Assembly: GCF_003334255.1 (NCBI RefSeq)
Contig: NZ_QOWU01000128.1
Direction: 5' to 3' (one strand)
Length of the DNA: 3,198 nt
Origin: Escherichia coli
Lineage (GTDB): Bacteria; Pseudomonadota; Gammaproteobacteria; Enterobacterales; Enterobacteriaceae
The notes under the pieces are model-generated. The model had not been told where the DNA came from, did not search any database, and was given only the letters and a program-made list of their open reading frames with translations. Of this stretch, positions 182 to 3,067 are shown one piece after another. The translations under genes were made by a program, and so were the position numbers. Position 1 is the stretch's first letter, and every line of letters begins with the position of its first letter.

Positions 182-3067
<2,886 letters not shown>

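Follow-up and report, generated by a model that had tools for sequence, protein, structure and literature searches.

The helix 98 hairpin of an Escherichia coli 23S rRNA gene carries the commonest natural allele of a known rRNA microheterogeneity

A 3,198-nucleotide stretch of Escherichia coli DNA, here called the window, contains a 23S rRNA gene with a short hairpin, helix 98 (H98), that departs from the rrnB copy of strain K-12. This raises the question of whether the departure is a variant of any consequence. The gene itself is complete. The bacterial large-subunit rRNA model of Rfam (RF02541) aligned in full length to window positions 173..3076 on the minus strand (2,904 nucleotides), matching model positions 1 to 2925 with a score of 2,875 bits, far above the gathering score of 50. 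Subtracting a window coordinate from 3077 therefore gives the 23S position, and this placement makes window positions 272..286 equivalent to 23S positions 2791..2805. The window begins inside the 5S gene (first 78 nucleotides) and ends inside the 16S-23S spacer, and it includes no flanking genes. In the spacer, directly upstream of the 23S 5' end, a match to the Rfam family StyR-44 was recorded (125 bits, window positions 3084-3192). Within the StyR-44 stretch, the spacers of K-12 rrnG and rrnD lack 9 nucleotides that are present in the window and in the remaining operons. The features considered below are listed in Table 1.

Table 1. Window coordinates of the 23S rRNA gene, the helix 98 hairpin and the nucleotides in tertiary contact with it
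Feature	Window position	Strand	Basis or remark
Complete 23S rRNA gene	173..3076	-	Rfam RF02541 and identity to E. coli 23S genes
Helix 98 hairpin, GACUCCUUGAGAGUC, 23S 2791..2805	272..286	-	Sequence, fold, covariation and Rfam consensus
Helix 98 stem, 5' strand GACUC, 23S 2791-2795	282..286	-	Position 283 is U2794 (C in rrlB)
Helix 98 loop CUUGA, 23S 2796-2800	277..281	-	Position 281 is C2796 (U in rrlB)
Helix 98 loop, G2799 and A2800	278 and 277	-	G2799 is A in rrlB; A2800 is the conserved docking adenosine
Helix 98 stem, 3' strand GAGUC, 23S 2801-2805	272..276	-	Position 275 is A2802 (G in rrlB), compensating U2794
G9 and A10, base of helix 1, tertiary partners of A2800	3067..3068	-	Unchanged
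U2629, base of helix 94, fourth member of the quartet	448..448	-	Unchanged

The plus strand of the window reads gactctcaaggagtc over the hairpin, which gives GACUCCUUGAGAGUC in the transcript. The first-pass annotation of this DNA had read both strands in the same way and had compared them with a K-12 rrnB sequence; that reference was accurate, as rrlB of strain MG1655 has GACCCUUUAAGGGUC at these positions. We retrieved all seven rrl genes of MG1655, read positions 2791..2805 in each and aligned the copies with the window. Exactly four differences from rrlB were found in H98, namely, C2794U, U2796C, A2799G, and G2802A. In the stem, position 2794 is opposite position 2802; the change from C:G to U:A is thus compensatory and pairing is kept, as had been proposed. 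The other two changes are in the loop (UUUAA in rrlB versus CUUGA in the window); the loop does differ, but at two of its five bases, slightly fewer than the several positions first claimed. Length, 5-bp stem geometry, A2800, the closing pair C2795:G2801 and the outer pairs G2791:C2805, A2792:U2804, and C2793:G2803 are common to both sequences.

Relative to rrnB, the hairpin is thus a variant, but this does not hold for K-12 as a whole. Four of the seven MG1655 copies (rrlH, rrlC, rrlA, and rrlE) are identical to the window over all 15 bases as well as over a 41-nucleotide context, whereas GACCCUUUAAGGGUC is found in rrlB, rrlG, and rrlD. The first-pass annotation had named reference copies with exactly this sequence as grounds for rejecting a variant, and such grounds exist for these four copies out of seven. 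The window carries the A/C/E/H-type allele and is separated from the B/G/D type by the four differences given above. These are the only sites at which K-12 rrlE and rrlB differ, and rrlG equals rrlB. The split of H98 into A/C/E/H and B/D/G copies in K-12 was stated outright in a 2024 paper (PMC11046459). The MG1655 rrlB, rrlE, and rrlG sequences agree with the Results section of the same paper.

The identity of the element as a hairpin was examined by consensus structure, covariation and folding. The Rfam consensus structure contains a hairpin at the place of H98. For the covariation analysis, 15 distinct alleles of 15 nucleotides were gathered from Enterobacteriaceae. Across these alleles, 98.7% of the stem cells pair, compared to 16 to 48% with the 3' partner shifted by 1 to 3 columns. 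Changes on both sides were observed at two pairs, 2793:2803 (C:G or G:C) and 2794:2802 (A:U, U:A, or C:G), and two alleles, one with U.G and one with C.A, resemble intermediates. No variation was seen at the two outer pairs or at the closing pair C2795:G2801. The consensus hairpin and the covarying stem together place the element as H98. In isolation, the 15-mer folds only modestly better than its shuffles (z = -2.1), and it is covariation and the rRNA context, not folding energy, that support the helix.

The two main alleles differ in their predicted isolated folds (ViennaRNA). A stem of 5 bp with a 5-nucleotide loop (-4.4 kcal/mol) is predicted for the window allele, and one of 6 bp with a triloop (-7.4 kcal/mol) for the rrlB allele, the sixth pair being U2796-A2800. 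The window allele cannot close the 2796-2800 pair because it has C at position 2796. Pairing of C2796 with G2799 within the loop was considered and rejected, as a 2-nucleotide loop is sterically impossible. Given the different model folds, the choice of allele may have a small effect on stability.

To count the alleles, 41-nucleotide queries covering positions 2778..2818 were used. Each 28-nucleotide megablast seed covers all four variable sites, and each query consequently finds its own allele only. A 101-nucleotide query yielded a total of 37,893 copies in 5,426 complete E. coli genomes. The window allele accounts for 24,390 of these copies (64%) and is present in 4,526 of the 5,426 genomes; the rrlB allele makes up 8,054 copies (21%) in 2,388 genomes. 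Because the two genome counts add up to more than 5,426, no fewer than 1,488 genomes must contain both alleles. A third allele with two further swapped stem pairs, GAGACUUAGAGUCUC, was found in 1,880 copies (5%) from 366 genomes, and a single-base loop variant, GACUCCCUGAGAGUC, in 1,911 copies (5%) from 425 genomes. In approximately 4.4% of E. coli 23S copies, the H98 or near-flank sequence falls outside the four counted alleles. The H98 of the window is therefore the commonest natural allele in E. coli, and it is the laboratory reference, rrnB, that carries a less common one. The novelty implied by the first-pass annotation does not withstand this result: a sequence shared by 24,390 of about 37,893 copies, belonging to a split that is already published (PMC11046459), is known and ordinary microheterogeneity and has little weight as a discovery. 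Nine window-type H98 contexts are located on records with a plasmid label, such as NZ_CP170376.1 at 4274-4374. One plasmid-classed record measures 169 kb and has two 23S copies. Such records may represent plasmid-borne rrn operons or misassigned replicons.

Over its entire length, the window shares 99.9% identity with the 23S-5S region in many complete genomes of E. coli. All 5,426 complete genomes match it, and none of them does so at 100% over the whole window, the best match having two mismatches. This best match is rrnB of strain WCHEC050613, with the gene order murI-16S-tRNA-Glu-23S-5S-murB-birA. The rrnB locus has the order murI-rrsB-gltT-rrlB-rrfB-murB. The two mismatches are at 23S positions 1174 and 2132, both outside H98. 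At position 1174 (window 1903), the window has U as in K-12, and WCHEC050613 has G. When aligned with the MG1655 copies, the 23S gene of the window differs from rrlE at 4 positions and from rrlB at 8; rrlE is without A1723, U1730, C1865, and G2132 of the window, none of which is in H98. The spacer bases of the window also resemble K-12 rrnE in the alignment with the K-12 copies. Among the seven K-12 copies, C1865 (window 1212) is shared with rrlC only. Position 2132 (window 945) is G in the window, U in six K-12 copies, and A in rrlD. An allele-specific 41-nucleotide search detected G2132 in 1,308 copies from 400 E. coli genomes, which identifies this base as a minor polymorphism of natural origin rather than an error.

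Another microheterogeneous site lies at 23S positions 1723-1735 (window 1342-1354). Its stem is UCC/GGA in rrlB, rrlG, and rrlE and CGA/UCG in rrlH, rrlD, rrlC, and rrlA. The window combines the UCC/GGA stem with A1723 and U1730 of the other allele, which constitutes a third, hybrid-looking allele. The sequence of WCHEC050613 rrnB at positions 1721-1738 equals that of the window.

A hairpin that looks like a hybrid of two K-12 alleles, in a window that lacks a perfect counterpart among the complete E. coli genomes and is at best two mismatches away from one, could reflect an assembly in which several rrn copies were collapsed or joined into a chimeric consensus, or a sequencing error. The exact H98 allele is nevertheless present in 24,390 copies and the odd base G2132 in 1,308, and the rrnB operon of the best-matching strain shares the 1721-1738 sequence. 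We regard the probability of an artefact as negligible and rejected this explanation on account of the exact population matches for the H98 allele and G2132.

If the allele is common, it might still identify an operon or a lineage, and both uses had been suggested. The spacer downstream of rrfB proved highly polymorphic when a 608-nucleotide query anchored there was compared with all genomes. The best place for this query in many genomes was an operon with two 5S genes, and individual loci were read instead. In a small sample of six fetched loci, read singly (strains WCHEC050613, M8, CREC-532, STEC383, TW10573, and A35), rrnB, adjacent to murB, carries the window allele in six of six, whereas K-12 rrnB has the other one. 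The window allele is present in 1 to 7 copies per genome. The H98 allele is untied to the operon, and its proposed use as an operon marker has to be abandoned. As a lineage marker, it is only weak. Its composition per genome does differ between lineages, with seven rrlB-type copies in O157:H7 genomes among the matches listed and seven copies of GAGACUUAGAGUCUC in many genomes, yet the same alleles recur across genera.

The assortment of polymorphic blocks among the seven K-12 operons is informative with regard to mechanism. The H98 split (B, G, and D versus H, C, A, and E) groups the copies differently from the split at 1723-1735 (B, G, and E versus H, D, C, and A). Like H98, the 1723-1735 element is the apex of a surface hairpin that changes in compensatory blocks, and in both cases the blocks assort independently among the seven operons; it differs from H98 in belonging to another 23S domain, and the tertiary contact is documented for H98. 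The mismatched splits form a mosaic of the kind expected if short tracts are copied from one rrn operon to another by gene conversion, and we infer from the sequences that gene conversion is the probable mechanism.

The distribution of the alleles outside E. coli was sampled by a pattern scan that covered a single genome for each species and required exact flanks. The scan returned 89 stretches, a sample rather than a census and with no ordinary E. coli reference genome among them, comprising the 15 H98 alleles of Enterobacteriaceae, all of them 15 nucleotides in length. The window allele was also found in Klebsiella michiganensis, K. indica, Trabulsiella, Citrobacter koseri, Kluyvera, Buttiauxella izardii, and Enterobacter. 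The rrlB allele occurred in Buttiauxella agrestis, C. amalonaticus, Escherichia whittamii, K. michiganensis, K. indica, and Leclercia. Both alleles are present within one genome in K. michiganensis DSM 25444 and in K. indica, and the two-allele polymorphism thus exists outside Escherichia.

Because alleles identical at all four sites are shared by different genera, drift within E. coli alone is insufficient to account for the pattern. The allele could have entered or left E. coli by horizontal transfer of a short rRNA segment between enterobacterial genera and its recombination, instead of arising by compensatory mutation within the lineage. Identical 15-nucleotide alleles, four sites apart, in several genera and the two Klebsiella genomes that hold both are what such exchange would leave behind. 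The same pattern is given by an ancient polymorphism kept by gene conversion in a multicopy gene, or by convergence where few states are permitted, and the cross-genus recurrence fits these three origins alike. We consider transfer unlikely, and it would bear on origin only, being compatible with the explanation preferred below. A 1,067-nucleotide contig labelled Levilactobacillus tujiorum (NZ_JAAXLK010000048.1) contains an Enterobacteriaceae-type 23S 3' end with the H98 sequence GAGACCUUGAGUCUC, which is also found in Enterobacter hormaechei. That assembly is probably contaminated with enterobacterial 23S.

What H98 does in the ribosome bears on whether the alleles matter. According to Nissley, Kamal and Cate 2023 (PMC10578474), A2800 flips out of the H98 loop, pairs with G9 and stacks with the A10-U2629 pair, thereby bridging H1, H94, and H98, and the H98 apex other than A2800 is poorly ordered. 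The substitutions A2800U and A2800G, as well as insertions of an MS2 tag that permit pairing of A2800 with U2796, left activity at 37°C intact but lowered the stability of the 50S subunit after exposure to 60°C (PMC10578474). The description of H98 in the first-pass annotation as a peripheral, nonessential hairpin that tolerates insertions is correct as far as it goes, but the A2800 contact is needed for heat stability of the 50S subunit, and A2800 is kept in the window. A is found at position 2800 in 14 of the 15 alleles. All four members of the quartet (G9, A10, U2629, and A2800) are retained, and the window is predicted from these bases to form the H1-H94-H98 quartet of the E. coli type. 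The published quartet work employed plasmid pLK35 with rrnB and presumably, therefore, an rrlB-type H98; it has the four quartet nucleotides in common with the window, for which the allele was read here from the sequence.

A functional reading can be built on these data. In it, the H98 alleles are distinct in function, tune 50S stability and make heterogeneous ribosomes, with U2796 pulling A2800 from its dock and C2796 leaving A2800 free on a weaker stem. The U2796-A2800 pair is predicted in the rrlB allele and not in the window allele (ViennaRNA), and sequestration of A2800 by U2796 is the cause proposed for the destabilization of MS2-tagged 50S subunits at 60°C (PMC10578474). The two alleles also persist side by side in 1,488 or more genomes of E. 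coli and inside single Klebsiella genomes. However, according to PMC10578474, A2800 is clearly docked in the wild-type structure 7K00, a model that may carry either allele. Many genomes have a single allele, e.g., in seven of seven copies, and relatives show free variation at loop positions 2796-2799. In vitro, yields were highest with operons B and E, either of which is sufficient for growth when no other rRNA operon is present; purified ribosomes of A, B, and E also performed better than the MG1655 pool (PMC11046459). Since rrlE and rrlB differ at the H98 sites only and operons B and E show equal activity, the window allele supports full function at 37°C; the published comparison of B and E was made at that temperature and with whole operons, whose 16S or 5S genes may differ as well. 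On balance, functionally distinct alleles seem quite improbable to us. Less probable still is a stricter version, according to which U2796 allows and C2796 forbids a competitor for A2800 and, together with stem strength, this sets the firmness of the tie between the 23S ends, the polymorphism being maintained across genera for that purpose. If it were true, mixed genomes would make 50S subunits of differing heat or stress stability.

The preferred explanation, to which we assign a probability of roughly 0.9, is that the window carries the commonest natural allele of the H98 apical hairpin, a known rRNA microheterogeneity shaped by drift and gene conversion. H98 is a surface hairpin (5-bp stem, 5-nucleotide loop) whose known role is to present a flipped-out A2800 to G9, A10, and U2629, a contact that ties the 5' and 3' ends of the 23S rRNA together. 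Constraint would then fall on stem geometry and A2800 only, and with constraint so limited, the two inner variable pairs can drift by compensation and the other loop bases can vary. Several alleles coexist, and recombination among the seven rrn copies would shift short patches between operons. Such gene conversion would explain why a given operon carries different alleles in different strains. The window differs from K-12 rrnB because rrnB happens to carry the less common allele. The original suggestion of neutral heterogeneity at the level of operons or strains is consistent with the allele frequencies, the mosaic distribution and the activity of operon E, which equals that of operon B (PMC11046459). 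Near-neutrality and spreading by gene conversion are, on these grounds, the probable components of the explanation. Intraspecific 23S diversity in E. coli has reportedly been surveyed by Anton et al. in 1999.

These findings have consequences for how E. coli 23S sequences are read. As rrnB, the 23S reference of the species, has the minority H98 allele, differences from it at positions 2794, 2796, 2799, and 2802 should not be taken for mutations. Since K-12 rrlE and rrlB differ at these four sites only, they represent a ready-made isogenic pair for studying H98 variation and 50S stability. H98 provides a clean, small example of compensatory evolution and gene conversion in a multicopy gene.
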